Positions 35,878-56,694 of a DNA stretch of 64,000 nucleotides are shown piece after piece. A program made the translations under genes and the position numbers. The notes below the pieces were generated by a model. That model worked only from the letters and a program-made list of their open reading frames with translations, was not told the origin of the DNA and did no database searches. Each line of letters starts with the position of its first letter. Positions within the stretch are counted from its first letter, which is position 1. Source of the stretch: Candidatus Latescibacterota bacterium. GTDB taxonomy: Bacteria > Latescibacterota > UBA2968 > UBA8231. The stretch covers positions 2,464,001 through 2,528,000 of the forward strand of contig CBDETY010000003.1 in NCBI GenBank assembly GCA_965243025.1, in the 5' to 3' direction.

Positions 35878-36042
35878 GGGATGTTCCTCTGGTTACGTCA
35901 CCGGGGGGAATCTAACGGCTCGTGCATGGCGCGGCGACCGTGCTGATCTTTTTGCACTCCCGGTGAAAAAGCCCATGCCGCCGAGGCCTGCACAGCGATG
36001 CGCAAGCGGGGCTGTCCGGGCCGGATCCGGGATCCTTCATCC

Positions 36043-37986: not shown

Positions 37987-40247
37987 TGGCGAAGAACGGA
38001 ACCTTCCTTCCAGGCTTCATCGCCGCGGGCCTGTTCCTCCTTCTGTCCGGATGCGGGCCATCCGAAGAGCGGCTGACCGAGGGAACACGGCGCATGGCGG
38101 AGCGGCTCGAGGCGATCGCCGACTCCGCCGATCCCGCCACCCATCCCTACGTCAACTCTCTCCGGGTCGGGTACTACCGCGGCCTCGTCGAGAAGCTGCG
38201 CGAGTCGGGGGCGTCCGCCGATCCCCGCGGCAAGTTCCGGCTGCTCGACGCCCGCTTCACCCTCGCCAGCGAGCTGCTGCGGGCGGGCCGCTCGGAAGAG
38301 GCGGCCCGGGAGTATCGACAGCTGCAGGCCTCGGCCGACCCCGGCTTCCGGCATACCCTGCAAATGCTGGTGGGAATCTCCTGGCTCCGCCTGGGGGAGC
38401 AGGAGAACTGCATCCTCCGGCACGACATCGACTCCTGCCTGCTGCCGGTCCGCGACTCCGGGGTGCACCAGGACCAGCGCGGGTCCCGCGCCGCCGTCGA
38501 GGAGTTCCTCGCGGTTCTGGAAGCCAATCCCGGCGACCTCGGGGCGCGCTGGCTTCTCAACCTCGCATCCATGACCCTCGGCGAGTACCCCTACTCCCTC
38601 CCCGAGGAGCACCTGATCCCCCCGGAAGCGTTCGCATCCGACTACGACATCGGGAGATTCACCGATGTCGCCCCGGCCCTGGGCCTCGACGTGGTGGGGC
38701 TGTCAGGGGGCGGGATCATGGAGGATTTCGACGGCGACGGCCATCTCGACATCATCGCCTCCTCGTGGGGACTGCGGGACCAGGTCCGCTACTTCCGCAA
38801 CCTCGGAGACGGGACATTCGCCGACCTGACCGCGGAGGCGGGCCTCACCGGGATCGTCGGCGGCCTCAACGCCCTTCAGGCCGATTACGACAACAACGGC
38901 TTCGCCGACGTCCTGGTCCTGCGCGGCGCCTGGCTCGACCGCGACGGGCATTACCCCAACTCCCTGCTGGCCAACCTCGGCGGCGGCAGGTTCGTCGATG
39001 CTACCGAAACCTCCGGCATGCTGACGTCGCATCCGACCCAGACCGCGGCCTGGGGAGATTTTGACAACGACGGCCGGGTCGACCTGTTTGTGGGCAACGA
39101 GACGGTGAGCGCCGAGCGCCACCCGTGCGAGCTGTTCCACAACCTCGGGGCCGGCGCCCCCGCGCGTTTCCGCGACCAGGCCGAGGCGGCCGGCGTCGCC
39201 GCGGCAGGGTACGTCAAAGGGGTGGTCTGGGGAGACTTCGACAACGACGGCCGCCTGGACCTGTACGTTTCCCGGCTGTCCCCCGACGAGCCCAACCTGC
39301 TCTACCACAACCTCGGGGAAGACGAGGACGGCCGCTGGCGTTTTGCCGATGTCGCCGCCGAGGCGGGAGTGACCGGACCCGCCCACAGCTTTCCCGCCTG
39401 GTTCTGGGATTACGACAACGACGGCTGGCTGGACCTGTTCGCGGCGGGATTCAAGGGGGACGTGGGAGACGTGGCCGCCGCCTACCTCGGGCTTCCCCAC
39501 GACGCCCAGACTCCCAGGCTGTACCGCAACAACGGCGACGGCACCTTCGCGGACGTGACGCGGGAGGCCGGCCTCGACGAACCGCTGATAGCGATGGGGA
39601 GCAACTACGGCGACCTCGACAACGACGGCTACCTCGACTGCTACATCGGCACCGGCGACCCGTACATGGCCACCGTCGTCCCCAACCGGATGTTTCGCAA
39701 CGCGGGGGGAAACCATTTCCAGGACGTCACCACCTCCGGCGGCTTCGGACACCTGCAGAAGGGGCACGGCGTCGCCTTCGGGGACATCGACCACGACGGC
39801 GACCAGGACGTCTTCGCGGTGATCGGGGGGGCCTTCACCGGAGACGTCTACCAGAACGTCCTCTTCGGGAACCCCGGGCACGGCAACCGCTGGATCAAGC
39901 TGAAACTCGAGGGCCGGCGCTCCAACCGCGCCGCCATCGGCGCGCGCATTCGCATCCTCGTGGCTACCGCCGCGGGAACGCGAAGCATCGAATCCACCGT
40001 CTCCAGCGGCGGCAGCTTCGGGGCCTCCCCCCTGCAGCGGGAAATCGGCCTCGGCCGGGCCGAGTCGATCGAGTCGATCGAAGTCTTCTGGCCGGCCAGC
40101 GGCGAAAGGCAGGTTTTCCGCGCGCCGCCGATGGAGAAGACCCTCTACATCCGGGAAGGGGACCCGCATTTCGAGGCGCGTGCCTTCGAGCCGTTCCCCC
40201 TCGCTTCCGCAGGGGAATCCGGAGCCCATGAGCGGGCGGGCCACTAG
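37986..40247 (+). CDS. CRTAC1-family lipoprotein (FG-GAP repeats plus ASPIC/UnbV) with N-terminal helical region
   Basis: TGATG overlap with the upstream gene, lipobox 'LLSGC', many 'DFDNDG.LD' repeats, C-terminal 'SNRAAIGARI...GGSFG....GLG'. Confidence 0.9.
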   Translation: MAKNGTFLPGFIAAGLFLLLSGCGPSEERLTEGTRRMAERLEAIADSADPATHPYVNSLRVGYYRGLVEKLRESGASADPRGKFRLLDARFTLASELLRAGRSEEAAREYRQLQASADPGFRHTLQMLVGISWLRLGEQENCILRHDIDSCLLPVRDSGVHQDQRGSRAAVEEFLAVLEANPGDLGARWLLNLASMTLGEYPYSLPEEHLIPPEAFASDYDIGRFTDVAPALGLDVVGLSGGGIMEDFDGDGHLDIIASSWGLRDQVRYFRNLGDGTFADLTAEAGLTGIVGGLNALQADYDNNGFADVLVLRGAWLDRDGHYPNSLLANLGGGRFVDATETSGMLTSHPTQTAAWGDFDNDGRVDLFVGNETVSAERHPCELFHNLGAGAPARFRDQAEAAGVAAAGYVKGVVWGDFDNDGRLDLYVSRLSPDEPNLLYHNLGEDEDGRWRFADVAAEAGVTGPAHSFPAWFWDYDNDGWLDLFAAGFKGDVGDVAAAYLGLPHDAQTPRLYRNNGDGTFADVTREAGLDEPLIAMGSNYGDLDNDGYLDCYIGTGDPYMATVVPNRMFRNAGGNHFQDVTTSGGFGHLQKGHGVAFGDIDHDGDQDVFAVIGGAFTGDVYQNVLFGNPGHGNRWIKLKLEGRRSNRAAIGARIRILVATAAGTRSIESTVSSGGSFGASPLQREIGLGRAESIESIEVFWPASGERQVFRAPPMEKTLYIREGDPHFEARAFEPFPLASAGESGAHERAGH

Positions 40248-41955
40248 CCCGGGCCGAAATCTCAGCCGTTGCCTGGCGGGAGCGGCGGCATGCCTCCTGG
40301 GGTTGGCGCCCCCGCTGGCGGCCAGCGACCTACCCGGGACCGGCGGCCGGGTGCAGTTTCGGGACGCGGCCCCCGAGCTCGGGGTGACCCTGAGGAACGT
40401 CTCCGGGGACGGGGAGCAGCAGTACGTCGTCGAATCCATGATGGGGGGATCCGCTTTCCTCGACCACGACGGCGACGGCGACCTTGACCTGTACGTCCTG
40501 AACGGATCGCAGGTCAGCGGTTTTCCCGAGGGCGGCCATCCCCGCAACGCATTGTACCGCAACGACAACACGGCGTTTGTCGAAGCGACCGGCGAGGCCG
40601 GGGTCGGGGACGCCAACTGGGGGATGGGCTGCGCCGTCGCCGATTACGACAACGACGGCGACCCGGATCTCTACGTGACCAACTACGGCGGGAACTCCCT
40701 CTACGCCAACCGGGGAGACGGGACCTTCGCCGACGTCTCCGCACCCGCAGGGGTCGCCGGGGAGGAACGCCGCTTCAGCACCGGGTGCGCCTTTTTCGAC
40801 TACGACCGGGACGGAGACCTCGATCTCTACGTCGCCAACTACGTCGATTTCTCGCATTTCATGGAAACGACCCCGGAAATGAGATACGAGTGGCGCGGAC
40901 TCACCGTCCACTTCGGGCCGCGCGGCATGCGCGGAGAGCCTGACTTTTTCTACCGCAACGACGGCGACGGGACTTTCTCCGATGCCACGGAAGCGGCCAA
41001 CCTCGTCGACCGCGAGATGCTCTACGGGCTCGGCGTGGTGGCGGGGGACTACGACAACGACGGCGACGCCGACCTGTACGTGGCCAACGACACCGGGGCC
41101 AACTACCTGTACGAAAACCAGGGGGACAGAACGTTCGCCGAGGTCGCCTGGCTGAAAGGGGCCGCCTTCGGCGAGAGCGGTGAGGCCCAGGGGTGCATGG
41201 GGATCGCCTTCGGGGACTACGACAACGACCAGTACCCCGACATCCTGGTCACCAACTTCTGGGAGGAGACCAACACCCTGTACCACAACGACGCGGGGGC
41301 GTTCTTCTCCGACCGCACCTTCGATGCGGGAGTCGGTATGGAGAGCTTTCAGTACCTGGCCTGGGGCACCGGTTTCTTCGACTACGACAACGACGGCGAC
41401 AGGGACCTGTTCGTAGCCAACGGCCACCTCTTCCCGCAACTGAACGGGGCCAACCTCGGAGTCGACTACGCCCAGACCAACCAGCTGTTCGAGAACGCGG
41501 GGGACGGGACTTTCAGGGAAGTGACCGGTGTTTCCGGACCCGGCCTTCAGATCGAAAAGGTGAGCAGGGGCGCCTCCTTCGGGGATTTCGACGGCGACGG
41601 CGACCTCGACATCTTCGTCCTCGACCTCAACGACTCACCCACCCTGCTGCGCAACGACGGGGGGAACCGCAACAACTGGCTGCTGGTGAAGACGGTCGGC
41701 ACCGAAAGCAACCGGGACGGCATCGGCGCGAAAGTAAAGGCCCGCTGCGGAGAGCTGGTCCAGATCAACGAGGTGCGAAGCGGCTCCAGCTACCTGTCGC
41801 AGAACGACCTGCGTCTCCACTTCGGGCTGGGCCGGTGTGCGGCGGTCGACGAGTTGGAGGTATCCTGGCCGAGCGGCCGGGAGGAGAGCTTCGAGGATAT
41901 TCCCGCCAACCAGGTCCTGACGATCCGGGAGGGCAGCGGGACCGTGCAACCCTGA
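40228..41955 (+). CDS. Secreted CRTAC1-family protein (FG-GAP plus ASPIC/UnbV)
   Basis: 'ESMMGG.AFLD.DGDGDLDLY', 'DYDNDG' repeats, 'SNRDGIGAKV...GSSYLSQND.RLHFGLG'. Confidence 0.9.
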   Translation: MSGRATSPGRNLSRCLAGAAACLLGLAPPLAASDLPGTGGRVQFRDAAPELGVTLRNVSGDGEQQYVVESMMGGSAFLDHDGDGDLDLYVLNGSQVSGFPEGGHPRNALYRNDNTAFVEATGEAGVGDANWGMGCAVADYDNDGDPDLYVTNYGGNSLYANRGDGTFADVSAPAGVAGEERRFSTGCAFFDYDRDGDLDLYVANYVDFSHFMETTPEMRYEWRGLTVHFGPRGMRGEPDFFYRNDGDGTFSDATEAANLVDREMLYGLGVVAGDYDNDGDADLYVANDTGANYLYENQGDRTFAEVAWLKGAAFGESGEAQGCMGIAFGDYDNDQYPDILVTNFWEETNTLYHNDAGAFFSDRTFDAGVGMESFQYLAWGTGFFDYDNDGDRDLFVANGHLFPQLNGANLGVDYAQTNQLFENAGDGTFREVTGVSGPGLQIEKVSRGASFGDFDGDGDLDIFVLDLNDSPTLLRNDGGNRNNWLLVKTVGTESNRDGIGAKVKARCGELVQINEVRSGSSYLSQNDLRLHFGLGRCAAVDELEVSWPSGREESFEDIPANQVLTIREGSGTVQP

Positions 41956-41961: not shown

Positions 41962-43629
41962 TCAACGGTCGGCGAGTGCGGCCGAGGCCGCCTCCTCGTT
42001 GACCGTCACCAGGGATTGGTAGCGCTCGCGCAGGGTTTCGAGGTATTCGTTGAATTCCTCCTTGTGCAGCTTGCGCCTCAGCTGTGACTGCGCCCTTTTC
42101 CTGGCCTCTTCAAAAGTTTCGCGTTTGCGCTCCCTCGACAGGACCTTGAAAACGGAGTAACCCTCCTGAACCGGGACGGGACCGGTCAGCACTCCGATCT
42201 CCGCCTCGACCACATGTTCGACAAAGCCGCCGAATTGTGGGGATTCGTGCTGGTGTACGTGGAAACGGCCTTCTTCGTCCCGCACCTCCCTCGAGCGGAT
42301 CGAGTGCCTGCCCGCCAGTTCCGCCAGCGAAGCCCCTTCCTCCACCAGCTCTGTCAGGCGCAACGCCTCCGATTCCGATTCAACGAGGATCTCCTGAACT
42401 TCGATCTGTTCCGGATGCAGGAATCTGTCGGCGTTGGCTTCGTAGTAGGCGCGGATGTCCGCTTCCGTAATGTCGACCCGCTCCATCAGGTGCTTTGCCC
42501 TGAGCCCCCTGACCAGCACCTGTTCTCCCTGTTCCTCGGCCCAGGCGACGAACTCCGGTTCGCTGTCGATTCCGCCACGGACCGCAGCCTCGACTATCAG
42601 GATGTCGGGAAGGACGTTCCTCTCGGCAAACGCGATTACCGTTTCCGCGCCGTCGAGGCTTGCCAGAACGTTCCTCCGGGAATCCTTTGCCACTTTGAGA
42701 AAGTCGGCGGCGGTAACCTCTCCCCCGTCGAAGCTGTAGAGAACCATGTCGAACGGGTCGTCGCCGCCTGTCCGCGCACCTCGCAGCAAGGCCTCGACGA
42801 ACTGCTTCATTCCATCCTGGTGCACCCGCAGCTTGTACTCCCGCTTCAGCTCTGCGACGACGGAGTCTCTCGCAGCCCGGAATTTCGCCTCCCGCAGCCC
42901 GCGGAGGGCCTGGGCTTTTTGCTGGGTGTTGAGGTCGACTGTGGTTTCGTCGAGGATCTTGAAAATCGCGTAACTCCGGCCGATCCGGATCGGCTCGGAT
43001 ACCTCTCCGAGGGCCAGGGGGAACAGTGCCTGTTCCAGGGGGAAAATCATCTGGCCCTTCATAACGTACCTGCCGACATCCCCGCCTCTGACGGCTGTCT
43101 CCCGGTTGGTCGAACGTTTCCGGGCGACCTCCGCGAAATCCGCCCCGGCCCTGATTTCCTCTACCGCGGCCTGTGCCGCTTCCAGGCCGGGGACCTTGAT
43201 GTCGGCGATTCGAATCGCCCTGTTGAGCCGCTCCTTATCTATGAAATCGTCCAGTTCGGCGTCGTCTACCGAAACCCGGATCGTGCGGTCTTCGAACAGA
43301 CCGAGGAGCTTTGCGCGCCGCGCCCTGTCCATCCGGGTGAGGTACGCGATGCTGTTGTCGAGTTCCTGGTTCCGGGCCTCGAGGAGCATCAGCTCCCTGT
43401 CGATCATGGTCCGCAGGTGGACCCGGCCCTGCTCCGCTCCGGGAGTTTCTTCCCCGGCCTTTTCGGAAAGGCCGGCGACGAATTCCCGCAGGTCCGCCGC
43501 GGTGATTACCCGCTCTCCCACCTGAGCAACCACCCCGCCATCATCCTGCGCGCAACTGCACAGGGAGAGCACCGCCAGGGGGACAACAGCTGCCAGCGAG
43601 CGAACCCCTGCTCGCTGGCGGTCGACCAT
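41962..43629 (-). CDS. SurA/PrsA-like foldase with two PpiC (parvulin) domains, possibly a lipoprotein
   Basis: 'VVAQVGER.IT', 'GADFAEVARKRS....RGGDVG', 'GEVSEPI', second 'QEILV....GASLAELAGRHS', 'GPVPVQEGYSVFKV'. N-terminal hydrophobic segment ending 'LCSC'. Confidence 0.85.
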   Translation of the reverse strand: MVDRQRAGVRSLAAVVPLAVLSLCSCAQDDGGVVAQVGERVITAADLREFVAGLSEKAGEETPGAEQGRVHLRTMIDRELMLLEARNQELDNSIAYLTRMDRARRAKLLGLFEDRTIRVSVDDAELDDFIDKERLNRAIRIADIKVPGLEAAQAAVEEIRAGADFAEVARKRSTNRETAVRGGDVGRYVMKGQMIFPLEQALFPLALGEVSEPIRIGRSYAIFKILDETTVDLNTQQKAQALRGLREAKFRAARDSVVAELKREYKLRVHQDGMKQFVEALLRGARTGGDDPFDMVLYSFDGGEVTAADFLKVAKDSRRNVLASLDGAETVIAFAERNVLPDILIVEAAVRGGIDSEPEFVAWAEEQGEQVLVRGLRAKHLMERVDITEADIRAYYEANADRFLHPEQIEVQEILVESESEALRLTELVEEGASLAELAGRHSIRSREVRDEEGRFHVHQHESPQFGGFVEHVVEAEIGVLTGPVPVQEGYSVFKVLSRERKRETFEEARKRAQSQLRRKLHKEEFNEYLETLRERYQSLVTVNEEAASAALADR

Positions 43630-43646
43630 GAAGAGAGTCGAAGCGA

Positions 43647-46358
43647 TCACTCGAGACCGGCGTATACCGTGGCGAAAGCCACACGACCGATCTGGGTCTC
43701 GTCGCCGATCGACCTGCGGGTGAGCCTCATGCCCATGTTCGTCGTCAGGCGGTATCCCAGGTAACTCCTGACATTGGAAAACTGCACGGCTCCGACGATC
43801 TCGGTGAAGTCGTCGAGCAGCCCCTCCTTGACGGCAATCTCGGAGTCCCGCATTTGGTTGAAGATCCCGTACTCGACTCCCGCCTGCATCGAAGAGGAGG
43901 AGAACAGGGGCCACCGCGCCAGCAACGACAGGAGCAGGGTGTTCTCCCGGCGTTCCGGGTCGGACCGCAGCGCCGGGGATTCCAGCCTCAGCTCGTTCTT
44001 TATCCTCGGCTGGATGTCGAAGTAGGCAATCTTGCGCTCGTAGTCGATTTTGTTGATGAGGCCGAAGAATGTGAAGTTGTCCCGCAGGTCCGGCTGTCTC
44101 TCGTTCTGGTGCCAGCGGTCGTACTTGAACTTGTTGATGATGTTTATGTTGGCCAGACCTGTGTATTTGAAACTTATGAACGAGGAGTTGATCCAGGTGT
44201 CCTGCGCCGCCAGCGGGTCGACGGTCGGGACGTTCCTTCTCTCGACCTCGCTCCACTGCCGCAGGTCGTTCTCGATGTTGTCCCTGGCGATACGGAAGTT
44301 CTCGAAGATCCTCAGCCTGCCGAGGCCGGGGTAGTCCTGCTCAAGGGCGAACAGGATGTAGTTGGTGGTGTTTTCACCGTCCCCGGCGATCAGTTCCTCT
44401 TCCGTCCTTCCAACCGTCAGCTTTACTCCCGGATAAAGGTCCGCCCCTCCGTAGACGTTGTACCCCCGGTGGTCCCTGGGGTAGGGGAAATCCGGCTCGT
44501 CGTCGTTCTCGAAGCGGTCGACCCAGATGTTGTTGTTCATGTCGATCCCGAACAGGAACTCCGGCCTGTCCGTGCCGTACCTCAGGAACGGCTCATTGTA
44601 GTCCGGGACGAGGTTGGGAAGGTCTTCGCTGTCGTTCTGGTTGAAGTCGGATATGAAATCGAGGTTTTCGTCGAACCCCGGAAATACCTCGACATCTATA
44701 TTCTCGAATATCCTCTGCCAGTCGGGGTAGCGGTCCTGGTCGTCGTTGTCGTCCACCAGTTCATAGTAGAATCGCGACTTGTCCGCGTAGTCGATATTGG
44801 TCTCCCCCCTGGCCATGATGACGCTGGTGTTGTAGTTGTGGTCCATGCTGTACGCCTCGCCGAAGAAATAGAAGGGGTGCGCGACCTTCGAGGCGTTTAC
44901 AATCCAGCCGTCCCCCTCGTCGGAGGCTCCGAGGTGGGTGGTTTGCGCCCTGTTGGGGTACTTCCGGTAACTGACGCTGCGGTCCCATTCTCCGTAGAAG
45001 TCGATCCCCCAGAGTCGGGTTGCTTCCAAGGTAAATCCGAATATTTCGGTGGCCGTGGGCAGACCGTACGGGATCTTGAGTACTGTCAGGTTGGAACCGT
45101 CCTGGACATTTGCTTCCGCCCGGGCGGCCACGAGGTAGACGTTCGCCCGCTGCCTGTCGAACTGGCGGTCTGAAGTCGTCTCGATACGGTAGTCGTTCGC
45201 CACCACGAGCTCGTGAGTCACCCTTCTGATCTCGGACGGATCAGGACCGGTGTACGATCCGATCGTGAAGTCGTAGACCAGCTCGATCTGCTCCGAGCCG
45301 CTCGCCTCCCAGAACCCGAGACGCTGGAAACCGCCTTGCGGAGCGGGAATCAGGCCGACGTCGCTGGCTCTCACCGTCTCTTTTTCAAAGCTGACATTCC
45401 CCTCAGTATCGATCTGCTCGGTTTCCGCCTCAATGATCAGGTCCCAGGCGAAGAGGGTGGCGCCTCCCTCGTTGTCCTCGGGTGAATCGTCGGAGAGGCG
45501 CACGAACACGCGGCTGACGTTCTCGGCGTTCTGGCTGGAGGCGATCGAGCCGCTGCGCGGGCTTCCCTCGAAAGCGTCGAGCAGCTGAAAGGAATTGTGG
45601 GCGCTGACGTAGTTTGCCCCGACCGTTACGGCGTCGCCGAGCTGGGCGGTCGCCCGCCCTCCGGTGAGCGTCGTCGAGCTCGTTGTCTGCTGGCTGGCCG
45701 GGTTTCGCGGCCCCGGCCCGCCCGGGGAGCTGACCCTGGACAGGAGCGCCGTCACCTCGTACTTGTCCGACTGGTAGTCGACCTGGATTCCGTCGAACGC
45801 CGGTTTCGAGAAGGACATCGGGGTCAGTGTCGAGCGGATTTCGTCCCCTATCGTTATGGCGAGGTTGTGCTGCCCCTTGACGTCGGAAGCTATAACCAAG
45901 TTGTTGAACCAGCTACCGAATTCCTCCGTCTTGAACAGGTTGCTTCCCCCCTGCTGGGGCTGCGTCTGGCTCCAGTCGTACACCAGCCATCCCTTGGTGA
46001 CGTACTTGCCGTAGATGTCGTAGAAGTAGTCTCCTTCCCGGGTGATTGACAAATAGCGTCTGTAATGATCGCGGGCGTAGTTGCTGTACTCCCACTGCTT
46101 CCACTGATACTCTCGAAAGAGCTCCTGGGGGACGTACCACTTCTTGACTGCCGGGTCGAGGGCTCCGAACAGCACCCCGGGGCCGGTCGGTTCGAAGGTG
46201 AGCTCACCGCCCCGGCGCACCCCCTTCATACGATCCGGATCGAAGGTTTGCGCCGTGGAATCGACGCTGAGAAGCAGCGAAATGGAGACAACGGCACAAG
46301 CTATGGCCGCGGTGCGGAGCTTCGCTGGCGCGACTCTGACTTCATGACCGGTCATCAT
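43647..46358 (-). CDS. Large hypothetical secreted protein, predicted outer-membrane beta-barrel
   Basis: Signal peptide; many alternating amphipathic strands (e.g. 'FTFFGLINKIDY', 'MQAGVEYGIF', 'YRLTTNMGMRL', terminal 'AFATVYAGLE'); Asp-rich loops. Confidence 0.7.
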   Translation of the reverse strand: MMTGHEVRVAPAKLRTAAIACAVVSISLLLSVDSTAQTFDPDRMKGVRRGGELTFEPTGPGVLFGALDPAVKKWYVPQELFREYQWKQWEYSNYARDHYRRYLSITREGDYFYDIYGKYVTKGWLVYDWSQTQPQQGGSNLFKTEEFGSWFNNLVIASDVKGQHNLAITIGDEIRSTLTPMSFSKPAFDGIQVDYQSDKYEVTALLSRVSSPGGPGPRNPASQQTTSSTTLTGGRATAQLGDAVTVGANYVSAHNSFQLLDAFEGSPRSGSIASSQNAENVSRVFVRLSDDSPEDNEGGATLFAWDLIIEAETEQIDTEGNVSFEKETVRASDVGLIPAPQGGFQRLGFWEASGSEQIELVYDFTIGSYTGPDPSEIRRVTHELVVANDYRIETTSDRQFDRQRANVYLVAARAEANVQDGSNLTVLKIPYGLPTATEIFGFTLEATRLWGIDFYGEWDRSVSYRKYPNRAQTTHLGASDEGDGWIVNASKVAHPFYFFGEAYSMDHNYNTSVIMARGETNIDYADKSRFYYELVDDNDDQDRYPDWQRIFENIDVEVFPGFDENLDFISDFNQNDSEDLPNLVPDYNEPFLRYGTDRPEFLFGIDMNNNIWVDRFENDDEPDFPYPRDHRGYNVYGGADLYPGVKLTVGRTEEELIAGDGENTTNYILFALEQDYPGLGRLRIFENFRIARDNIENDLRQWSEVERRNVPTVDPLAAQDTWINSSFISFKYTGLANINIINKFKYDRWHQNERQPDLRDNFTFFGLINKIDYERKIAYFDIQPRIKNELRLESPALRSDPERRENTLLLSLLARWPLFSSSSMQAGVEYGIFNQMRDSEIAVKEGLLDDFTEIVGAVQFSNVRSYLGYRLTTNMGMRLTRRSIGDETQIGRVAFATVYAGLE

Positions 46359-46401
46359 GTTGCTCTCCCTTGCCTTTCTAATTGCAGTAGACTGTGATTG
46401 A

Positions 46402-48123
46402 TCAATAAACCAAAGGCACTATTGCCGTCCTGCTCTCTGTTCCTGTATCCGCAGCGACCTCCACGCGCACCAGGTACACTCCTGGCGGCAACATCTGACC
46501 GCTGTCGTCCGCTCCATCCCAGGTTCGCCGGTATCTCCCGCTGGCTTCGGGACCGGAATGGATCACCCTTCTCAGTCTCCCGTTCAGGTCGTACACCTCC
46601 ACCGCCACAGGGGTACCGCTCGTGAGGTTGACGATGTCGTAGGAAATCGCGGCGAGTTCGTTTACCCCGTCCCCGTTGGGCGTGAACGGCGCCGGCACCG
46701 CTTCCAGGGCATGAATGATGTTCTTTGCGATCACGATCGTGACCGACAGGTCGTCCCCGAGGGCAAGCTCATCATCGGCCGCATCTCCCGACCTGATCTC
46801 CTGCGGGAGGTCCTGCGGCCTCTGACTGTTGAAAACCCTCCCGGAAAAAACCGTGTTGTACTGCAGGGCGATACTTTCGAAGACGACTCTCAGGGTGCTG
46901 TTCCCGGAAACACCGGGAAACCGGATCTCCACGCCGCCGTCGATGTCGAACTTCTCGAACTCGACTTCCGAGCCGTTTATGGATACCGAGCTGACCGCCT
47001 CCACCGGTGCCTGCGTCTCGATGTGCAGACGATCGAAGCCGAGGCTGTTGAAGCTCCTTACGGTGTAAACCAGCTCGGTCGCTTGCCCGATCATGGCATT
47101 CTGAGGCCAGATCTCCCCCAGCAGCGAGTCGGCGAGGGCGGGGGCAACCTCCACGGCGATTGAATCGACCGTTGCAGCCGACAGGATGTCGCTGCTGGCG
47201 AAGTTCAGCTGAAACTGCCAGTACTGATTCGGCGCCGGCGAGGTAATCCTGTTCGGGATTCCCGCAGGATATGGGGGAGACCATCCGCTCCAGGTGGTAT
47301 CGGTCGGCACCTCGGTACTGCCGCTGCGGGTCGCCAGGGTCACCCCTACCTTGGTCGGTTCCCCGATTGTGTCGCTTGCCCAGGTTACCTGGCCGAACAC
47401 CGCCGGGGCGCCCTGATTGAACACGTTCGAGGTGTACTGGGCGGCCGAGGCGAAACCTTCCCCGAAGATCTCGAATTCGTCGATCTCCCACTCCCCTCTC
47501 ACCAGTTGTTTCACCTCGATGTAGCGGACGTATTGAAGCGGGACCGGCAGGTCGACTACCGGATCGACGTTCCGCTCCACCGTCTTGAAGAGCCTGTAGT
47601 CCGGTGTGCCGGAAAGGGTCCGCTGCTCTTCGCTGCCGTCGTTGAGCGACACCTCGTACCCCTTGAGGAAGTATTCCTGGAATCCCTCTCTCGGGAAGAA
47701 GCGAATCCTGTTGACCCCGAAGCGCTCGCCCAGGTCGATCCTGAAGATGATGCCCGTTGCCGAAGGAATCTTGATCTCGAAGGCCCTGTCCCTGCCGTCG
47801 ACCATGTAGGTCAGAAGCTTGTCCAGGTCGGACTGGGATACTTCGAGCACTACCCTGGCGTTGGGGGAGGAAATGGTTCCCCCCTGCTCGATCAGTTTCA
47901 GGGAAATGTTGTCTTCGGGGCCGGTCTGGGCGGGTTGAATGAACCCGGGATTGGTCTCGAAGTCGATAACCGTCAACTCCGAATAGTTTTCCTGCCATGC
48001 CCGGGACCCCGGGCCGCCTCCGAAAACGACCGTCTCGGAATCGCCCGTCGAGGCGAGCCCGAACACCAGGGGAGCAACAGCGGGCCAGAGAACCGCCTTT
48101 TTCAATGATTTCCCGACTTTCAT
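46402..48123 (-). CDS. Secreted discoidin-like/Ig protein with FlgD-Ig C-terminal domain
   Basis: Signal peptide, 'IDLGERFGVNRIRFFP', 'TRSG...WSGWSPPY', 'GEIWP', 'FTPNGDGVNE...YDLNGR...WDG.D...PPGVY', ends 'VPLVY'. Confidence 0.85.
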   Translation of the reverse strand: MKVGKSLKKAVLWPAVAPLVFGLASTGDSETVVFGGGPGSRAWQENYSELTVIDFETNPGFIQPAQTGPEDNISLKLIEQGGTISSPNARVVLEVSQSDLDKLLTYMVDGRDRAFEIKIPSATGIIFRIDLGERFGVNRIRFFPREGFQEYFLKGYEVSLNDGSEEQRTLSGTPDYRLFKTVERNVDPVVDLPVPLQYVRYIEVKQLVRGEWEIDEFEIFGEGFASAAQYTSNVFNQGAPAVFGQVTWASDTIGEPTKVGVTLATRSGSTEVPTDTTWSGWSPPYPAGIPNRITSPAPNQYWQFQLNFASSDILSAATVDSIAVEVAPALADSLLGEIWPQNAMIGQATELVYTVRSFNSLGFDRLHIETQAPVEAVSSVSINGSEVEFEKFDIDGGVEIRFPGVSGNSTLRVVFESIALQYNTVFSGRVFNSQRPQDLPQEIRSGDAADDELALGDDLSVTIVIAKNIIHALEAVPAPFTPNGDGVNELAAISYDIVNLTSGTPVAVEVYDLNGRLRRVIHSGPEASGRYRRTWDGADDSGQMLPPGVYLVRVEVAADTGTESRTAIVPLVY

Positions 48124-48177
48124 TTCACCACAGGCTCCTGTTACATGTCGCGACGGGCGAATGCCGCCCATCGCCGG

Positions 48178-50835
48178 TCAATACGCGAGGTGCACCAATC
48201 GATGGGCCGAGCTGTTCTTGCCCGACTTGTCGTCGACGTCCAGGTCGATGCGCACGAGGTAGATGCCCGGGGGCGCCAGCCCGCCCGAGCCGTCCCTGCC
48301 GGTCCAGGTCACCTTGTGGCGGCCCGCCTCCTGCGAGTCGTCGCTCAAGCGGCTCACGAGGCGGCCGCTCAGGTCATACACTTCCACCCGAACCGGGGCG
48401 GCCCTTCCCACCCGCATCAGCGAATACCCGACCTCCAGGGCGTCGTTGACGCCGTCCCCGTTCGGCGTGAAACTGGCGTCGATCTCCAGGTCGCCCAACA
48501 GCTCCCCCTGCTCCAGCGCCAGCACCACCGTCGTCTCGCTGTCGTTGACCCCGTTGGCATCCCCGTCATCCACCCGCTGCCACGAGTTCGCGAACTCCGA
48601 GTGGCCCGTCGAGCCGATGAAGTAGGTGTTGTATGCGAAAATCGTCGCTTCGAACGCGACCTCGACCAGCACCGACCCGCTCGTCGTCTTGAGCGCTTCG
48701 GGAAAACGCACCCACAGCGAGTCCGACTCGTTGCGAACCACCTCGAAGCCGTCGCTGCCGGGCGTGTAGGTCACCGCTTCCCGGCCGGTGACGTTCACCT
48801 GCGCCTGCTTCAGCGACATCTCCACCCCGTCGGGCGCCTCGATGAGCACCTCGTCGAACCCCCGGCTGCCTTCCTCGAAGGTCGAGCGCACGAAGTAGGA
48901 CAGCTTCTGGCGGCGGCCGATCTCCTCCAGACGGGACGGCAGCACCTCCCCCAGGATGGCCCCGGCCACCGGCGTCACGAAGTTCAGCGCCAGCGAACGC
49001 AGCGTCGCCGAGGCCATCGGGTCTTCCGTCAGGAACGTCGCCCGGATCGACACGTAGCGGCGCGGACTCGGCGAGGTGATCTTTTCGCCCGGCTCGAAGT
49101 ACGGCTGGCTCCAGCCGCTCCAGTCGGGACCCGGAATGGTCTCGGTGACGGCCGGACCGACCGAGCTCTCGCCGAAAAGGTCCTTGTCGCTGTTGTAGGC
49201 TTTGGCCGCTTCCTCTTCGGTGCCGGGGTATACATCCCCGTTCTTCTTGTAGTAGTGCGTGATCTTCTGCACCGTGTCGCCAGAGCGCGTCTGGATGATC
49301 AGCTGTGTACCTGGCGGAGTATCGGCGTCCCATTCGATCGTCGACAGGTTCTGGGGAAGATCGCCCAGCTCGATGTACGGCGACTCCCCTGCGAAAACCG
49401 ACTCGATGCTGGATTCAGGCATGAACCCCTCGCCGAAAAACTGGATCTCCGACAGGCCGTGCCGCCCCGCCCTCTCGAACAGCCGGTAGGTGAAAGCGAA
49501 ATGTTCCACCTTGGACAGCGGAAACTTGAAGTCGTGATACGTTTCCCCCCCCCCGATGTTGCGGAGCGACCCGACCGTCTTCCACGCGAGCTCGCCTCCG
49601 GCATTGGTCGACCCGTCCGACAACTGAATCCGGTAGGCGCGAAAGGGCCCCGGCGGGCTGGTGGCTGATGAAAGCACCCGGATATTGTCGAGGAAGAAGG
49701 ATCCGCCGAGATCGATGAACAGCGAGCGCTCGACATCCGGCGGGTCCGAAATCGGCAGCCTGTCCGGATTGTAGCCGCCCTGGGCGGGCCAGTACACCAC
49801 CTCCCCGAAGAAATCCCCATCCACGACAGACCCCTCGGCCCCGTTGTTTTCCCAGCTCTTTGCGCTGCCGCCCCGCTCCAGCACCCCGGTGCCGATGTTG
49901 TCGCCGATCGCCCAGACCTCTACCTCCGCCAGCCTGGGAAGCTCGCGGCGGTAATGGACCACGGGCCCCTGTCTTCCGGAACTCTCCAGCACCTCCCAGT
50001 CCTCCCTTCCATCCAGCAACCAGACTTTTCCGGAGACCTCCCGCCGAAAGTACTCGATGTCTCCCTGAAGGCCGGTGGGAAGACTCTCGTAGACGGACTG
50101 CGAAACCTCCCTCGCCTTGCCGAAATCGCTGTCGGTGATGCCGACTCCGACATAGCGGATCACGTCCCCCGTGAAGTCGCCGTGCACGTTCGGCCACTTG
50201 GTGGGCAGCTGCCTGGTAAGGTCGATCTCGAACACCCGTTCGTTCTTGACCGGTCTGTTCGTGGTGAAGCGGGTTCGGTACAGCAGGGGACCGATGGTGG
50301 TTTCTCCCTGTGAGGTGGTCACCTTGAACTGCAGAAAGGGATCGCCCAGATCCTCGTCGACGAACTTCAGCACGATACGGGTGGCCGATACCGTCCTCCC
50401 CAGGTCGATCTGCACCCACCAGTCCTGGAGCGGGTCTGACACGTCCGGTTCCCACCAGGTGTCCATGCGGCCGTCCATCAGGTCGAGTGCGCCTGAAATA
50501 TTGGAGCCGGCATCCCTTATCCCGCCGCCGAACTCCGCGAAATCGAGAACGGCATTGATTCCGGGAACCACTACTTCCCTGCCATCGATGTCGAGAACGG
50601 TGCTTTTGCGGATGAACTCCGGCCGCACACCCTCGTCGCCGACCTGGATCGTTCCGGCAACCGAATGCCAGCGCTCCCAGTGCTCCCTCGAGTCGACAAC
50701 CACCCTTTCGGAATCGAGGGAATACCCTTCCTGGCTCCGGCCAACCCCCGACGAACCGAGGGTGATAACCGGGAGAAACAGGACTGTCCTAATTGACACG
50801 GCAGAAAATGCCGATCGACTCATGGCCGTTGCCAT
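48178..50835 (-). CDS. Secreted double discoidin-like/Ig protein with FlgD-Ig C-terminal domain
   Basis: Signal peptide, 'DG...TWWEP...WWVQIDLGR', second 'IDLGGSFFLDNIRV', 'WSGWSQPY', 'FTPNGDGVND', ends 'VHLAY'. Confidence 0.88.
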   Translation of the reverse strand: MATAMSRSAFSAVSIRTVLFLPVITLGSSGVGRSQEGYSLDSERVVVDSREHWERWHSVAGTIQVGDEGVRPEFIRKSTVLDIDGREVVVPGINAVLDFAEFGGGIRDAGSNISGALDLMDGRMDTWWEPDVSDPLQDWWVQIDLGRTVSATRIVLKFVDEDLGDPFLQFKVTTSQGETTIGPLLYRTRFTTNRPVKNERVFEIDLTRQLPTKWPNVHGDFTGDVIRYVGVGITDSDFGKAREVSQSVYESLPTGLQGDIEYFRREVSGKVWLLDGREDWEVLESSGRQGPVVHYRRELPRLAEVEVWAIGDNIGTGVLERGGSAKSWENNGAEGSVVDGDFFGEVVYWPAQGGYNPDRLPISDPPDVERSLFIDLGGSFFLDNIRVLSSATSPPGPFRAYRIQLSDGSTNAGGELAWKTVGSLRNIGGGETYHDFKFPLSKVEHFAFTYRLFERAGRHGLSEIQFFGEGFMPESSIESVFAGESPYIELGDLPQNLSTIEWDADTPPGTQLIIQTRSGDTVQKITHYYKKNGDVYPGTEEEAAKAYNSDKDLFGESSVGPAVTETIPGPDWSGWSQPYFEPGEKITSPSPRRYVSIRATFLTEDPMASATLRSLALNFVTPVAGAILGEVLPSRLEEIGRRQKLSYFVRSTFEEGSRGFDEVLIEAPDGVEMSLKQAQVNVTGREAVTYTPGSDGFEVVRNESDSLWVRFPEALKTTSGSVLVEVAFEATIFAYNTYFIGSTGHSEFANSWQRVDDGDANGVNDSETTVVLALEQGELLGDLEIDASFTPNGDGVNDALEVGYSLMRVGRAAPVRVEVYDLSGRLVSRLSDDSQEAGRHKVTWTGRDGSGGLAPPGIYLVRIDLDVDDKSGKNSSAHRLVHLAY

Positions 50836-50840
50836 GCCGG

Positions 50841-53531
50841 TCAGTACGCCATGTGCACCAGTTTATGGACCGAGCTGTTCTTTCCCGACTTGTCGTCGAC
50901 GTCCAGGTCGATGCGCACGAGGTAGATGCCCGGAGGCGCCAGGCCCCCCGAGCCGTCCCTGCCGGTCCAGGTCACCCGGTGGCGCCCCGCCTCCTGCGAG
51001 TCGTCGCTCAAGCGGTTCACCAGGCGGCCGCTCAGGTCATACACCTCCACCCGCACCGGGGCCGCCCGGCCCACCCGCATCAGAGTATACCCCACCTTCA
51101 GCTCCTCGTTGACGCCGTCTCCGTTCGGCGTGAAGCTGCGGTCGATCTCCAGGTTCCCCAGCAGCTCTCCAGGCTCCAGAGCCAGCACCACCGTCGTCTC
51201 GCTGTCGTTGACCCCGTTGGCATCCCCGTCACTCACCCGCTGCCACGAATCGGCGAATTCCGAATGACCCGTCGAGCCGATGAAGTAGGTGTTGTACCCG
51301 AATATCGTCGCCTCGAAATCGATCTCGACCAGCACCGAGCCGCTGGTCGACTTGATCGCTTCGGGAAAGCGCACCCACAGCGAGTCCGACTCGTTCTTCA
51401 TCACCTCGAATCCCTCGCTGCCGACCGTGTACGTTACGGCGTCCTGCCCGGTCACATTCACCTGCACCTGCTTCAGCGACATCTCCAACCCGTCCGGCGC
51501 CTCGATGAGCACCTCGTCGAACCCCCGGCTGTTTTCCTCGAAGGTCGAGTGCAGCAAGTAGGACAGCTCCTGCTTCCGGCCGATCTCTTCCAGGCGCGAC
51601 GGCAGCACCTCTCCAACGATTACTCCGGCCACCGGCGTCACGAAGTTCAGCGCCATGGAACGCAGGTTCACCGCCGCCATCGGATCCTCCGTGAGAAAGG
51701 TCGCTCTGACGGCGACGAACTTGCGCGGACTCGGGGAGGTGATCTTGTCGCCCGACTGGGAATACGGCTGGCTCCAGCCGCTCCAGTCGGGGCCTGTAGC
51801 CGCTTCCACGACGATGGGGCCGACCGAGCTCTCGCCGAAAAGGTCCTTGTCGCTTTCGTACGCTTTGGCCGCTTCCTCTTCGGTGCCCGGGTACTCATCC
51901 CCGTTCTTCTTGTAGTAGTGCTTGATCTTCTCCACCGTGTCGCCCGAGCGCGTCTGGATGATCAGCTGGGTAGCGGGCGGGATATCGGCCTCCCACTCGA
52001 TCGTCGAAAGGTTCTGGGGAAGTTCCCCCAACTCGATAAACGGAGACTCACCTTCGAAAACGGACTCGATAATCGATTCGGGCATGAACCCCTCGCCGAA
52101 AAACTGGATCTCCGACAGGGCGAACGAGTCCGCGTAGATTTGAACGGCGCTCGACCCATCGTTCGGCCACAGCCTGTAGGTGAAGGAAAAGTATTTCGCC
52201 TTCGTCAGCGGAAACTCGAAGTTGTTGTAACGCTGGCTGTTGGGGGAGGTAGTGATGTCGAGACCTGAAACCGATGCCACGGTCCGCCATTCCAGGGCGC
52301 CGCCGGCATTGGTGGAGCCGTCCGACAGCTGAACCCGGTATTCGGGAACGGGGTTTGTCCAGAAAGTAAGGGGGGCCTGCTGCAGCACGCGGATGTTGTC
52401 GAGAAAGAAAGCGCCCCCGAGATCGATGATGAGCTGGCGTTCCTGGTCCAGGGGCACCGTGGGTGCAATGAGGTCCGGATTGAAACCTCCCAGGCCGGTC
52501 CAGTACAGCACCTCCCCGAAAAACCGCCCGTCTACCAGCGCCCCTTCAGTGCCGTTGTTGTCGACACTCGTCACCGTGCCCCCGCGAGGCAGTACGCCGG
52601 TGCCGATGTTGTCACCGATCGACCACACCTCGATCTCGGCCAGCCTGGGCAGCTCGCGGCGATAGTAGACCACTTTCCCCTGGCTGCCGGTGCCTTCGAG
52701 GGCATCCCAGTCCTCCTTGCCCCCTCGGAGACGCAGCTCCCTTCCCGAAGCATCTCTGCGGAAGTACTCGATGTCCCCCTGCCGGTCGGGTGGCAGACTC
52801 TCGTATACGGCCTGGGGTACCTCCCGGCCTTTGCCGAAATCGCTGTCCGTCACGACGACACCGATGAAGTCGATGATATCCCCCGTGAAGCCCCCGGTTG
52901 AATTCGGCCATTTCGTCGGCGGTTGCCTGGTCAGGTCGATTTCGAACACGCGCTCGGTCTTGACCGGTTGTTTGGTGGTGAAGCGGGTCCGGGTCACGTA
53001 GGGGCCAACGGTAGTCTCTCCCTGGGAGGTGGTAACCTTGAAGTGGAGAAAGGGGTCTCCGAGGTCGTCGTCGACGAACTTGAGGACGATCTTGGTGGCC
53101 GAAACCGAGCGGCCCAGATCGACCTGGATCCACCAGTCCTGTACGGGGTCGGAGAGGTCGGGCTGCCAGTACGTGCTCAGGTCGCCATCGGTCACGTTGA
53201 GGGCGTCGAACCGGTTCGATCCAACGTCCAGGATTCCACCGCCGAAATCCGCGGCGTTGAGCATGGCGTTGATCCCGGGAACCGTTACTTCCTCTCCCTC
53301 TACCTCCAGCGTGGTGCTCTTGCGTATATACGCCGGCAGCACCCCCTCCTCGGTGATCTGCATCGTGTTGGCCGAGAACTTCCACTGCTCCCAGTTTCCC
53401 TTCGAATCGATCACCACCCTGCCAGGCTCGAGGGTAAACCCCTCCTGTCCCGAACTTCCCGCCGCCGCCAACAGGACGACCGGAATGCCGCGCGCCGCTA
53501 TTCGAAGGCCTGCTTCAAACGCCGATCCCAT
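50841..53531 (-). CDS. Secreted double discoidin-like/Ig protein with FlgD-Ig C-terminal domain (tandem paralog of 48178-50835)
   Basis: Same motif order as the neighbour, near-identical C-terminal half, ends 'VHMAY'. GAGGAG RBS. Confidence 0.88.
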   Translation of the reverse strand: MGSAFEAGLRIAARGIPVVLLAAAGSSGQEGFTLEPGRVVIDSKGNWEQWKFSANTMQITEEGVLPAYIRKSTTLEVEGEEVTVPGINAMLNAADFGGGILDVGSNRFDALNVTDGDLSTYWQPDLSDPVQDWWIQVDLGRSVSATKIVLKFVDDDLGDPFLHFKVTTSQGETTVGPYVTRTRFTTKQPVKTERVFEIDLTRQPPTKWPNSTGGFTGDIIDFIGVVVTDSDFGKGREVPQAVYESLPPDRQGDIEYFRRDASGRELRLRGGKEDWDALEGTGSQGKVVYYRRELPRLAEIEVWSIGDNIGTGVLPRGGTVTSVDNNGTEGALVDGRFFGEVLYWTGLGGFNPDLIAPTVPLDQERQLIIDLGGAFFLDNIRVLQQAPLTFWTNPVPEYRVQLSDGSTNAGGALEWRTVASVSGLDITTSPNSQRYNNFEFPLTKAKYFSFTYRLWPNDGSSAVQIYADSFALSEIQFFGEGFMPESIIESVFEGESPFIELGELPQNLSTIEWEADIPPATQLIIQTRSGDTVEKIKHYYKKNGDEYPGTEEEAAKAYESDKDLFGESSVGPIVVEAATGPDWSGWSQPYSQSGDKITSPSPRKFVAVRATFLTEDPMAAVNLRSMALNFVTPVAGVIVGEVLPSRLEEIGRKQELSYLLHSTFEENSRGFDEVLIEAPDGLEMSLKQVQVNVTGQDAVTYTVGSEGFEVMKNESDSLWVRFPEAIKSTSGSVLVEIDFEATIFGYNTYFIGSTGHSEFADSWQRVSDGDANGVNDSETTVVLALEPGELLGNLEIDRSFTPNGDGVNEELKVGYTLMRVGRAAPVRVEVYDLSGRLVNRLSDDSQEAGRHRVTWTGRDGSGGLAPPGIYLVRIDLDVDDKSGKNSSVHKLVHMAY

Positions 53532-53554
53532 TTCGTATCTCCTCGATTCGCAGA

Positions 53555-55498: not shown

Positions 55499-55689
55499 GG
55501 ACGCTACCTCTTCGAGGGCTCGAAGCCGCACGGACTTCGGCCGTTTCGTCAGCAATAAGCAACTCGATATGCGACCGGCACAAGGCCGGTGTTCGTATCA
55601 AACAGGCATTCGCCGACGGTCCTGGATCCACAGGTGGGACAGCCCCCCTTTTTCCGAGGCCGTCCGGTTCGCAAAATGCCCCCGGGCGG

Positions 55690-55734
55690 AAAACAGAAAA
55701 GGGGGCGGAGAAATCCGGGATCTCTCCGCCCCCT
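55690..55734 (-). terminator. Intrinsic terminator after the CBM9/DOMON-like gene
   Basis: Perfect 12-bp stem AGGGGGCGGAGA (55700-55711) / TCTCCGCCCCCT (55723-55734), followed on the minus strand by a TTTCTGTTTT tract. Confidence 0.88.
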
Positions 55735-55770
55735 CGGTTTCAAGCTATCTCCTACAACAGAAGCTTTTGT

Positions 55771-56694
55771 TCAGTTGGAGAAGCTTTGCTTGATACGGGC
55801 CCAGCTGTCCTCCTCGACAGCGGTGGCCACGTTCTCTCCGGGAACCCACCAGTCCTCGTTGTAGCCGAGGAACACGTAGTCGACCATGGCGGTTGCCTTG
55901 AAGTAGATCTCGGTGTCGCCGCTGTTGGTCCAGTACCCGTTGTAACGGCCTTCGGCTCCGTCATCGTCGTCCTGAACGGAAAAGCCGACGCCCATGATCT
56001 CACCCTCTTGGATGGTGTGGAAGATGATCCTGTCGTCGTCCGGTCCCGTCGAGTTGGTGGGCAGATCGTTGAACGGAGTGAACCACATCTCCATGTAGAG
56101 AGTGGTCGGGCCCCCGACCAGCTCGCCTTCGTAAGACCACCTTACGCCCGAATGCGGCTCGGTGCCGGCCCACGGAGCACCACCCCAGATCCACATCTCG
56201 TTGGGGGCCCCTTTGTTGAGCTGGTAGCGGTAGTTCTGCGAGAGGGCGCCTTCCCACCTCTCGGGATCCAGACCTTCAGACTGCACGTTCTGGAAGATCG
56301 GGTCGGCGCTGTGGTCGAAGTCGAGCATCACTTCGAGGGTGTCGAAGTTGTTGTCGATGGTTCCGTAGAAGAAGTCGTCGAACTTTTCCTCCATGACATA
56401 GAGGAAGTTGGTCACCGGACTCCATCCGAAAATGATGCGCTCGGCGAGGTTGCCGGGATCCGGGTCGCCCTGCGTGCCGGTGACGGTCTCGACGAGGTCA
56501 TCGTGGGTTACCCAGAAGGCGGAAGGAACGTTGTCCCAATCGCCGAGATCTCCGTCCATCTCGACATCCCTGATCCCGTCCACGTTGATCGGAACCTGGA
56601 CAGCGGCCCAGTTCCTGTCGGTGCGCAGGTGGGCTGAGCCCGCCACGGCCATGACCAGAACCAGCCCGATTGCTGAAGCGAGAATCCTTTTCAC
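55771..56694 (-). CDS. Secreted CBM9/DOMON-like protein with short C-terminal 'TAVE..SW..IK' motif
   Basis: GTG start with a strong GAAAGGAG RBS; signal peptide 'KRILASAIGLVLVMAVAGSA'; 'MDGDLGDW', 'GWS...N.LY', 'D.LEV..D.DHS', 'G..MG.G..V.D.D'; ends 'TAVEEDSWARIKQSFSN'. Confidence 0.8.
   Translation of the reverse strand: MKRILASAIGLVLVMAVAGSAHLRTDRNWAAVQVPINVDGIRDVEMDGDLGDWDNVPSAFWVTHDDLVETVTGTQGDPDPGNLAERIIFGWSPVTNFLYVMEEKFDDFFYGTIDNNFDTLEVMLDFDHSADPIFQNVQSEGLDPERWEGALSQNYRYQLNKGAPNEMWIWGGAPWAGTEPHSGVRWSYEGELVGGPTTLYMEMWFTPFNDLPTNSTGPDDDRIIFHTIQEGEIMGVGFSVQDDDDGAEGRYNGYWTNSGDTEIYFKATAMVDYVFLGYNEDWWVPGENVATAVEEDSWARIKQSFSN

Follow-up and report, generated by a model that had tools for sequence, protein, structure and literature searches.

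A new, very large outer-membrane beta-barrel family with a conserved acidic insertion, encoded in recurrent gene cassettes of Latescibacterota

We analysed a stretch of 64,000 nucleotides from a Candidatus Latescibacterota bacterium (assembly GCA_965243025.1, contig CBDETY010000003.1, positions 2,464,001 to 2,528,000; the window, hereafter), and in it a minus-strand gene of 903 codons (43647-46358, stop codon at 43647-43649) whose product we call the barrel protein. There is good support for placing this protein in a new family of very large outer-membrane barrels, marked by a conserved acidic insertion that probably binds calcium. A first-pass annotation of the window had proposed a new barrel family and the likely core of a system, and both proposals held: the barrel gene is the fixed centre of its gene cassette in 54 of 54 long related loci. 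The same annotation had called the gene an orphan, which was wrong, as it belongs to one of the largest paralogous families of its genome and has at least 727 representatives at 50% identity. Our preferred functional reading, which we hold tentatively, is that the barrel serves as hub or channel, in the membrane, of a module that captures and takes up glycans much as a polysaccharide-utilisation locus (PUL) does.

The open reading frame (ORF) is uninterrupted, and its codon-position GC (0.56/0.41/0.82, in a GC-rich window) is of the coding type, which identifies it as a real gene. The encoded protein starts with a signal peptide region (approximately aa 1-36; 46251-46358, on the minus strand like all parts of the gene), visible as a helix at residues 10-30 of the structural model and as a hydrophobic segment at residues 12-36, with a putative cleavage site at its end. 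An aromatic-rich N-terminal extension follows (aa 37-153; 45900-46250), in which W, Y and F make up 19-26% of the residues and which is presumed to lie in the periplasm. The pattern ALDPxVKRWYVPQELYxEYxWRQWEYSNYAR...GWLIYDW is kept in this extension in the alignment of main-clade paralogs (the clades are described below), among which the mean pairwise identity of the extension is 0.47-0.49; the aromatic motif is present in nearly all paralogs. The first-pass annotation had read the 903-aa frame and the aromatic region correctly, and every string that it quoted was found, the aromatic stretch at aa 73, TKGWLVYDW at aa 121, DDNDDQDRYPD at aa 536, DENLDFISDFNQND at aa 563 and DMNNNIWVDRFEND at aa 606. 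It had also recognised no plug, TonB box or POTRA motif; likewise, at E ≤ 0.1 neither Pfam nor NCBIfam gave any domain in the barrel protein, Plug, TonB-receptor and POTRA domains included. Sequence and profile searches of the PDB with the barrel protein returned chance-level matches only, and an NCBIfam scan of 45 family members assigned no family.

An AlphaFold2 model computed from a 74-row alignment of the family had a mean predicted local distance difference test score (pLDDT) of 82.3 and a predicted template-modelling score (pTM) of 0.77. As read from the DSSP string of the model alone, 28 long strands run from aa 154 to 902. They fall into an N-terminal half (aa 154-505; 44844-45899) with about 15 long strands and a C-terminal half (aa 630-903; 43650-44471) with about 13, the latter with block pLDDT values mostly of 81-96. 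The acidic insertion lies between strands 15 and 16, and the Asp-rich loops are therefore not ahead of the strands, as the first-pass annotation had placed them. Outside the signal-peptide helix the model contains no helix of more than six residues. Residues 31-106, after that helix, have pLDDT values below 50, and four short strands occupy aa 110-143. Hydropathy averaged over the family alternates along the predicted strands, which are amphipathic (mean difference of 1.58, versus 0.71 for 802 non-strand windows).

All 47 matches listed by Foldseek against the PDB at E ≤ 0.001 were membrane beta-barrels. Deinococcus SlpA/SDBC came first (E of 1e-7 to 3e-7), followed by MtrB, LptD, ushers, porins and SprA, at TM-scores that were low throughout (0.12-0.25 overall; 0.19-0.23 for SlpA). 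A VIA-align search of 48,161 structure representatives gave a similar picture, its best 50 matches all being beta-barrel membrane proteins (Z of 9.1-14.0). The top Z values belong to partial alignments of about 250 residues to barrels of 12-18 strands, and the longest alignments were those to SlpA (399 residues, Z of 11.8), MtrB (392, Z of 11.6) and Cir (368, Z of 10.6). The C-terminal half is the region best matched by 16-18-strand barrels; the alignments to FhaC, TamA and BamA span only about 250 residues of it. As the matches of both searches are all barrels and none is specific, the protein is, by its model, an outer-membrane barrel without a specific solved relative. The confident model was matched only by outer-membrane beta-barrels, and no known outer-membrane protein (OMP) family covers its full length, in keeping with the earlier proposal of a new family. 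Were the N-terminus periplasmic, as in ordinary OMPs, the long connections after odd-numbered strands, the acidic one included, would face the outside.

The acidic insertion (aa 506-629; 44472-44843) comprises 124 residues, mostly coil, with block pLDDT values of 59-87, a D/E/N content of 38% and three Asp/Asn-rich motifs. It is the best-conserved region of the protein: the mean frequency of the top residue among the 74 aligned members is 0.55, versus 0.39-0.44 in the barrel halves, and the mean pairwise identity among 25 main-clade paralogs of the same genome is 0.61, versus 0.15-0.57 for single strands. The third motif, DMNNNIWVDRFE (aa 606-617), is an EF-hand-like loop of 12 residues. The EF-hand loop consensus has 12 residues, with D at position 1, D or N at positions 3 and 5, a hydrophobic residue at position 8, an oxygen ligand at position 9 and E or D at position 12, and DMNNNIWVDRFE satisfies it. 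A loose form of this pattern occurs in 70 of the 74 members (mean of 1.6 in shuffled sequences) and a strict form, with Gly at position 6, in 40 (shuffled mean of 0.15). The motif DDNDDxD is found in 51/74 (0 in shuffled sequences) and DDSP in 65/74 (1.6), so that the Asp-rich motifs pointed out in the first-pass annotation are far more frequent in the family than in shuffled sequences. A DDSPEDxxGGA turn (aa 290-300), within the N-terminal barrel half, is kept in nearly all paralogs. The insertion most likely binds calcium, through the EF-hand-like loop and the two further Asp/Asn clusters.

Relatives of the barrel protein were found in protein, reference-genome and own-genome searches, and it is therefore not an orphan. 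A word-indexed search scored 8000 candidates, and 931 of these proteins matched at E ≤ 0.001. Nearly all are of about 870-920 aa and covered over their full length, and none has a Pfam domain; the few with a name are annotated as hypothetical proteins of Latescibacteria or Gemmatimonadota. Exhaustive HMMER searching of representatives at 50% identity yielded at least 727 at E ≤ 0.001, and 194 at E ≤ 1e-30. Among contigs from one genome per species, 329 of 404 candidate stretches were confirmed as family loci by a scan with a 29-row alignment. Of these 329, 80 were kept, and they derive mostly from metagenome-assembled genomes (MAGs) labelled Latescibacterota or Gemmatimonadota, often several to a MAG. 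The genome of the window (6.8 Mb in 3 contigs) holds 47 stretches that match the family, and rough gene calls covering 72% of the main contig contain at least 37 member proteins. Barrel genes thereby outnumber TonB-dependent receptors in this genome (at least 37 versus 29 Plug-domain genes). In a same-phylum sample, 46 of 81 genomes, the genome of the window included, had a barrel match at E ≤ 1e-20; the barrel was present in 14/14 genomes of its own family and, at the same threshold, in 0/24 and 0/6 genomes of two other families of the class. A search for fused or longer forms, which is weak evidence, returned none. The literature that we searched on Latescibacter and on type IX secretion (T9SS) in gemmatimonads does not describe the family, which is large and so far undescribed.

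Seven genes on one strand, the barrel gene being number six, encode, in order, the CBM9-like protein X459, the discoidin and T9SS-domain proteins F4, F3, F2 and F1, the barrel, and a SurA-like peptidyl-prolyl isomerase (PPIase). The gaps from F4 to F1 are 5-23 nt; F1 lies 43 nt upstream of the barrel gene, and the PPIase gene 17 nt after its stop. The cassette is strongly conserved, with one to three barrels between the discoidin/T9SS-domain proteins and the SurA-like lipoprotein. The barrel genes of the genome form 27 clusters, and within 10 kb of them we found an F-family gene at 25/27 (0.28 at random), a PPIase paralog at 14/27 (0.065 at random) and an X459 paralog at 11/27 (0.068 at random); conversely, 13 of 17 PPIase paralog loci lie no more than 10 kb from a barrel. 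Of the 80 fetched loci, 54 were at least 15 kb long, and these contained F genes in 54/54, PPIase and X459 in 47/54 each, a second barrel and an FG-GAP protein in 27/54 each, and a DUF6785 protein in 18/54. In 58 of the 59 loci with enough flank, the distance from the end of a same-strand F gene to the first barrel downstream of it is below 400 nt. The PPIase directly follows the last barrel in 25/68 loci; in the remaining ones it occupies another place in the cassette. Two cassettes have as neighbours large proteins that contain a spermine/spermidine-synthase domain (G000:C3:2645885-2648455 and 6746761-6749508), and one of these proteins has an N-terminal half like that of the major facilitator superfamily.

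A quick maximum-likelihood tree of 36 paralogs from the genome (one fragment was dropped) splits into a divergent clade with 10 members and a main clade with 26, and in the latter the barrel gene of the window is of the single-barrel type. Seven of the eight second barrels of tandem pairs fall in one clade (SH-aLRT of 100), and the members of two triple arrays pair by position (99-100). This grouping by array position indicates that the tandem barrels are old, position-specific paralogs, and it would fit their forming hetero-oligomers. Downstream of the divergent, sister-clade barrels, TPR proteins of about 1100 aa take the place of the PPIase; they gave YfiO matches and weak TPR_Slam matches. 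One sister-clade cluster runs from the barrel through the TPR protein, ExbB (4e-29), ExbD (2e-27) and a further ExbD-like gene to a PPIase paralog, and two ExbD genes lie 5.4 kb upstream of a triple barrel array. The sister-clade tandem arrays of the genome (G000:C3:6173700-6191175 and 6097091-6116504) look like a motor-linked version of the system.

The partner genes of the window, all on the minus strand, give the cassette its character. F1 (46402-48171) is a secreted protein with a FlgD_ig/CHU_C C-terminal domain (FlgD_ig 1.9e-9, CHU_C 2.7e-6) and a discoidin-like region for which the F5_F8_type_C_2 match is weak (0.12). F2 (48178-50835) combines F5/8-type-C (discoidin) and FlgD_ig/CHU_C C-terminal domains, and F3 (50841-53531) is its paralog by Pfam and by BLAST among the F proteins. 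F4 (53555-55555; CHU_C 2.1e-9, FlgD_ig 1.5e-8) probably starts about 19 codons inside its ORF. In all four proteins the FlgD_ig and CHU_C domains reach or exceed the Pfam cut-offs, and F2-F4 carry F5/8-type-C domains; the NCBIfam models of T9SS sorting domains, type A and type B, score below cut-off. The PPIase (41962-43629; 555 aa) has a SurA_N-like region and two parvulin domains (Pfam SurA_N_3, Rotamase and Rotamase_2). Its most probable start is the ATG at 43629, and it has the lipobox LSLCSC, the Cys26 of which at least 90% of 28 aligned homologs share.

X459 (55771-56691; 306 aa) is a predicted Sec-exported beta-sandwich protein for which Pfam and PDB sequence searches gave no match. The best Foldseek match of its AlphaFold2 model (pLDDT of 77.9) is the CBM9 structure 7nwn (E of 4.6e-10, target TM-score of 0.71), followed by heme-binding subunits of the DOMON type, and CBM9_1 is annotated in 13-94% of the members of the Atlas clusters nearest to it. 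As X459 has a signal peptide and neither a lipobox nor a T9SS C-terminal domain, it is probably periplasmic. The signal peptide ends in A or G followed by H in all 29 homologs listed, which would give a mature N-terminal histidine. At least 90% of 31 aligned sequences have His21, and Asp126 and His127 are invariant. A motif at the extreme C-terminus, TAVExDSWGRIKxxF, is conserved, with pLDDT values below 50; in the proteome of the genome, 10 of 11 matches to this pattern are at the C-termini of ORFs of about 300-460 aa. The His and Asp residues may be ligands of a metal or heme, and the tail may serve as a docking peptide. The mature N-terminal histidine had suggested a copper protein like the lytic polysaccharide monooxygenases, an assignment that we rejected because the model fits sandwiches of the CBM9/DOMON type. 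A consensus scan found a strong terminator-like hairpin (55699-55735, minus strand; a 17-bp stem with 10 G-C pairs) between X459 and F4, and X459 may be transcribed more strongly than the other cassette genes, or separately.

Several further genes accompany the cassette. Two DUF6785/DUF6784 proteins with about 11 predicted transmembrane segments flank it (35998-37986 and 59709-61691, both on the plus strand). The genome has some 46-51 DUF6785 loci, just 8/46 of them within 10 kb of a barrel; the proteins could be an inner-membrane permease family tied to the cassettes, and the searched literature does not mention them. FG-GAP_3/UnbV_ASPIC proteins, of which the genome has about 40 paralogs, lie on both sides (40180-41955, plus strand; 57026-59116, minus strand). 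At 0.60-0.65, the GC content of the cassette region (42000-58000) is below the 0.65-0.72 measured over the window's initial 40 kb. Just past the flank (61699-63540, minus strand) there is a gene for an S15 X-Pro dipeptidyl-peptidase, a hint that peptides or glycoproteins might be among the substrates.

In the genome, SprA and two PorU proteins score above the cut-offs and PorV-like proteins below, and many ORFs end in a PorU-like C-terminal domain. These features make it plausible that the F proteins are T9SS cargo. SprA was present in 76 of the 81 same-phylum genomes, including all 30 of the two barrel-less families, from which it follows that the barrel would be an accessory and not a core part of T9SS. 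A tandem barrel pair (6649899-6655485) precedes the SprA gene (G000:C3:6660196-6666387) by about 5 kb.

We favour, with due reserve, a role of the barrel as hub of glycan capture and uptake, because its partners are of the lectin type, the PUL-like cassettes are many and diverged, a polytopic membrane protein is often near, and the sister clade is linked to ExbB and ExbD. The sugar-binding character of the partners is seen in the F5/8-type-C domains and in the CBM9-like fold of X459. The Sec-exported barrel of about 28 strands, possibly a distant relative of the SlpA-type barrels, would sit in the outer membrane as the hub of a cassette present in some 27 copies in the genome. The acidic insertion, with bound calcium, would fold across the wide lumen or reach into it and so constrict or plug it, and the aromatic N-terminal extension would hang into the periplasm. 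The discoidin F proteins would reach the surface through T9SS and bind a polymeric substrate, most likely a glycan; the barrel would pass the substrate or its fragments inward across the outer membrane, and the periplasmic X459 would receive them. The cassette-specific SurA-like lipoprotein would escort or assemble the giant barrel. Several observations weigh against this proposal. No CAZyme, TonB box or Plug was recognised in the cassette; a genome-wide search found 29 Plug genes, none of them at a barrel locus, and no main-clade barrel, that of the window included, has an ExbB or ExbD gene within 12 kb. With neither Plug nor TonB box, passive passage through a 28-strand barrel would need a gate, the existence of which we infer. 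The strand count, the closure of the barrel and the position of the insertion were read from the DSSP string alone. The enrichment of the FG-GAP/UnbV protein (by 10/27 barrel clusters; 0.11 at random) and of the DUF6785 protein (by 9/27; 0.16 at random) is modest. Finally, the dedicated SurA-like and TPR proteins and the constant association of barrel and F gene suit protein anchoring or export equally well.

The nearest competitor, which we consider rather unlikely, is that the barrel acts as a cargo anchor or shuttle, holding the neighbouring F proteins on the surface by their C-terminal domains and transporting no nutrient. It would account for the F gene with a CHU_C/FlgD_ig domain directly upstream in 58/59 loci, CHU_C being a Pfam T9SS signal domain that is at or above cut-off in F1-F4, and for the tandem barrels, whose old, position-specific paralogs parallel the several F genes per cassette. 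The PorP/SprF model TIGR03519 matched neither the barrel nor any protein of the genome, so that no such anchor was recognised there, and the control genomes were equally silent. Against an anchor, the barrel is three times the size of PorP/SprF and has no sequence match to it, neither the type A nor the type B sorting-domain model reaches its cut-off in the F proteins, and the periplasmic X459, the acidic insertion and the ExbB/ExbD of the sister clade are left unexplained. Co-encoded chaperone-type partners, the SurA-like protein in 47/54 loci and the sister-clade TPR protein with its YfiO and weak TPR_Slam matches, would also suit a dedicated translocon, in which barrel and partner export or insert the F proteins independently of SprA, in the manner of an usher, a two-partner system or Slam. 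Ushers and LptD are among the structural matches of the barrel; however, these matches are generic, Pfam and NCBIfam gave no POTRA, usher or Slam barrel signature, and the F proteins have T9SS-type C-terminal domains in a genome with SprA and PorU. We judge such a translocon improbable. Uptake, anchoring and translocation can overlap.

A mainly structural role would make the barrel an abundant, SlpA-like organiser of the envelope, its pore filled by metal-stabilised insertions. SlpA was the top Foldseek match, and the SlpA_C model (PF21620) gives a weak link between the two families, below threshold. In a Pfam scan of 45 distant members, 11 matched SlpA_C at E ≤ 0.01, and at E ≤ 1 the matches were 12/44, with 14.2-30.2 bits versus a cut-off of 35, always at profile positions of about 226-330, which correspond to the strands near aa 375-470. 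The barrel protein itself had no SlpA_C match; the model found just two divergent paralogs of the family in the genome, at 15-20 bits, and scored above cut-off in the Thermus and Deinococcus control genomes. Sub-threshold matches so consistent in position, together with the top Foldseek matches, suggest that the family is possibly a distant relative of SlpA-type barrels. The pore-lining insertions of D. radiodurans SlpA are stabilised by Asp metal sites, and SlpA may, in its authors' view, act as a scaffold (PMC9388160). On the other side, the barrel protein has neither an SLH domain nor a coiled-coil stalk, and dozens of diverged copies, each with its own cassette, speak for specific rather than bulk functions, which renders a scaffold very improbable here. 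To a highly diverged TonB-dependent transporter we give almost no credence, since its length similar to that of SusC-type proteins, the Cir and BtuB structures among the VIA-align matches (Z of 10.1-10.6) and the nearest named Atlas cluster, the 'TonB-dependent receptor-like' DUF6029 (0.88, a lead only), are set against about 28 strands versus 22, no match to Plug (PF07715) or TonB_dep_Rec at E ≤ 0.1, the 29 Plug genes that all lie elsewhere, and the rejection of DUF6029 itself, as PF19494 matches no paralog.

Returning to capture and uptake, a bolder version may be put forward, one that we regard as doubtful in its entirety. The plug-less, calcium-gated barrels of 28 strands would be the conduit of a third, hitherto unrecognised architecture of outer-membrane nutrient uptake, beside SusCD loci and plain TonB-dependent receptors. 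The conduit would often be a fixed hetero-oligomer of two or three old paralogs. Its partners would be lectins displayed through T9SS, a CBM9-like receptor in the periplasm that starts with a histidine, a SurA-like chaperone of its own and, in the sister clade, a TPR-ExbB-ExbD motor. The bacteria with this family belong to lineages, labelled Latescibacterota or Gemmatimonadota, that are uncultured or have hardly been studied; many come from sponge and marine samples, and their genomes give over dozens of cassettes of about 15 kb to the barrel family. If the cassette is a device of uptake or capture, it is probably a main feeding route of these organisms, and it would represent a new combination of type IX secretion with outer-membrane transport as well as a new class of giant barrels for structural study. 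As neither Pfam nor NCBIfam has a model for it, annotation pipelines are blind to the family.

The barrel was compared with several known systems. An assignment to the Omp85/BamA/TpsB group found no support, the barrel protein having no POTRA or Omp85 match in Pfam. LptD and MtrB, barrels of 26 strands that enclose a partner protein, are among the best full-length structural matches and are likewise large barrels co-encoded with a lipoprotein or periplasmic partner; they have no sequence relation to the barrel, and the cassette partners are of other families. PorP/SprF-type barrels hold T9SS cargo with a type B C-terminal domain on the surface in Bacteroidota. The likeness lies in a barrel gene directly downstream of a gene with a T9SS-type C-terminal domain, in a genome with T9SS, whereas PorP/SprF measure about 300 aa versus about 900 aa, TIGR03519 does not match the barrel, and the conserved CBM9-like protein, the SurA-like lipoprotein and the tandem barrels are extra on the side of the barrel. 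SusC and SusD belong to the polysaccharide-utilisation loci of Bacteroidota. They share with the present system the many diverged cassettes per genome and the pairing of an outer-membrane barrel of about 900-1000 aa with surface proteins of the carbohydrate-binding type; in contrast, no Plug, TonB box, SusD, glycoside hydrolase or lyase was recognised in the barrel cassette, and its surface proteins carry T9SS C-terminal domains, not lipoprotein signals. SlpA of Deinococcus-Thermus (PDB 8ae1, 7zgx) is a very large single-chain barrel, with 28 or 30 strands depending on the species (PMC9388160), compared with about 28 in the DSSP string here. Both have large Asp-rich insertions, which form the metal sites in SlpA and the 124-residue acidic insertion in the barrel protein. 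SlpA possesses an SLH domain and a coiled coil, neither of which was found in the barrel protein. The parallel is suggestive and does not amount to family membership. SlpA is encoded in one or two copies, whereas the barrel family is multi-copy and bound to its cassettes.

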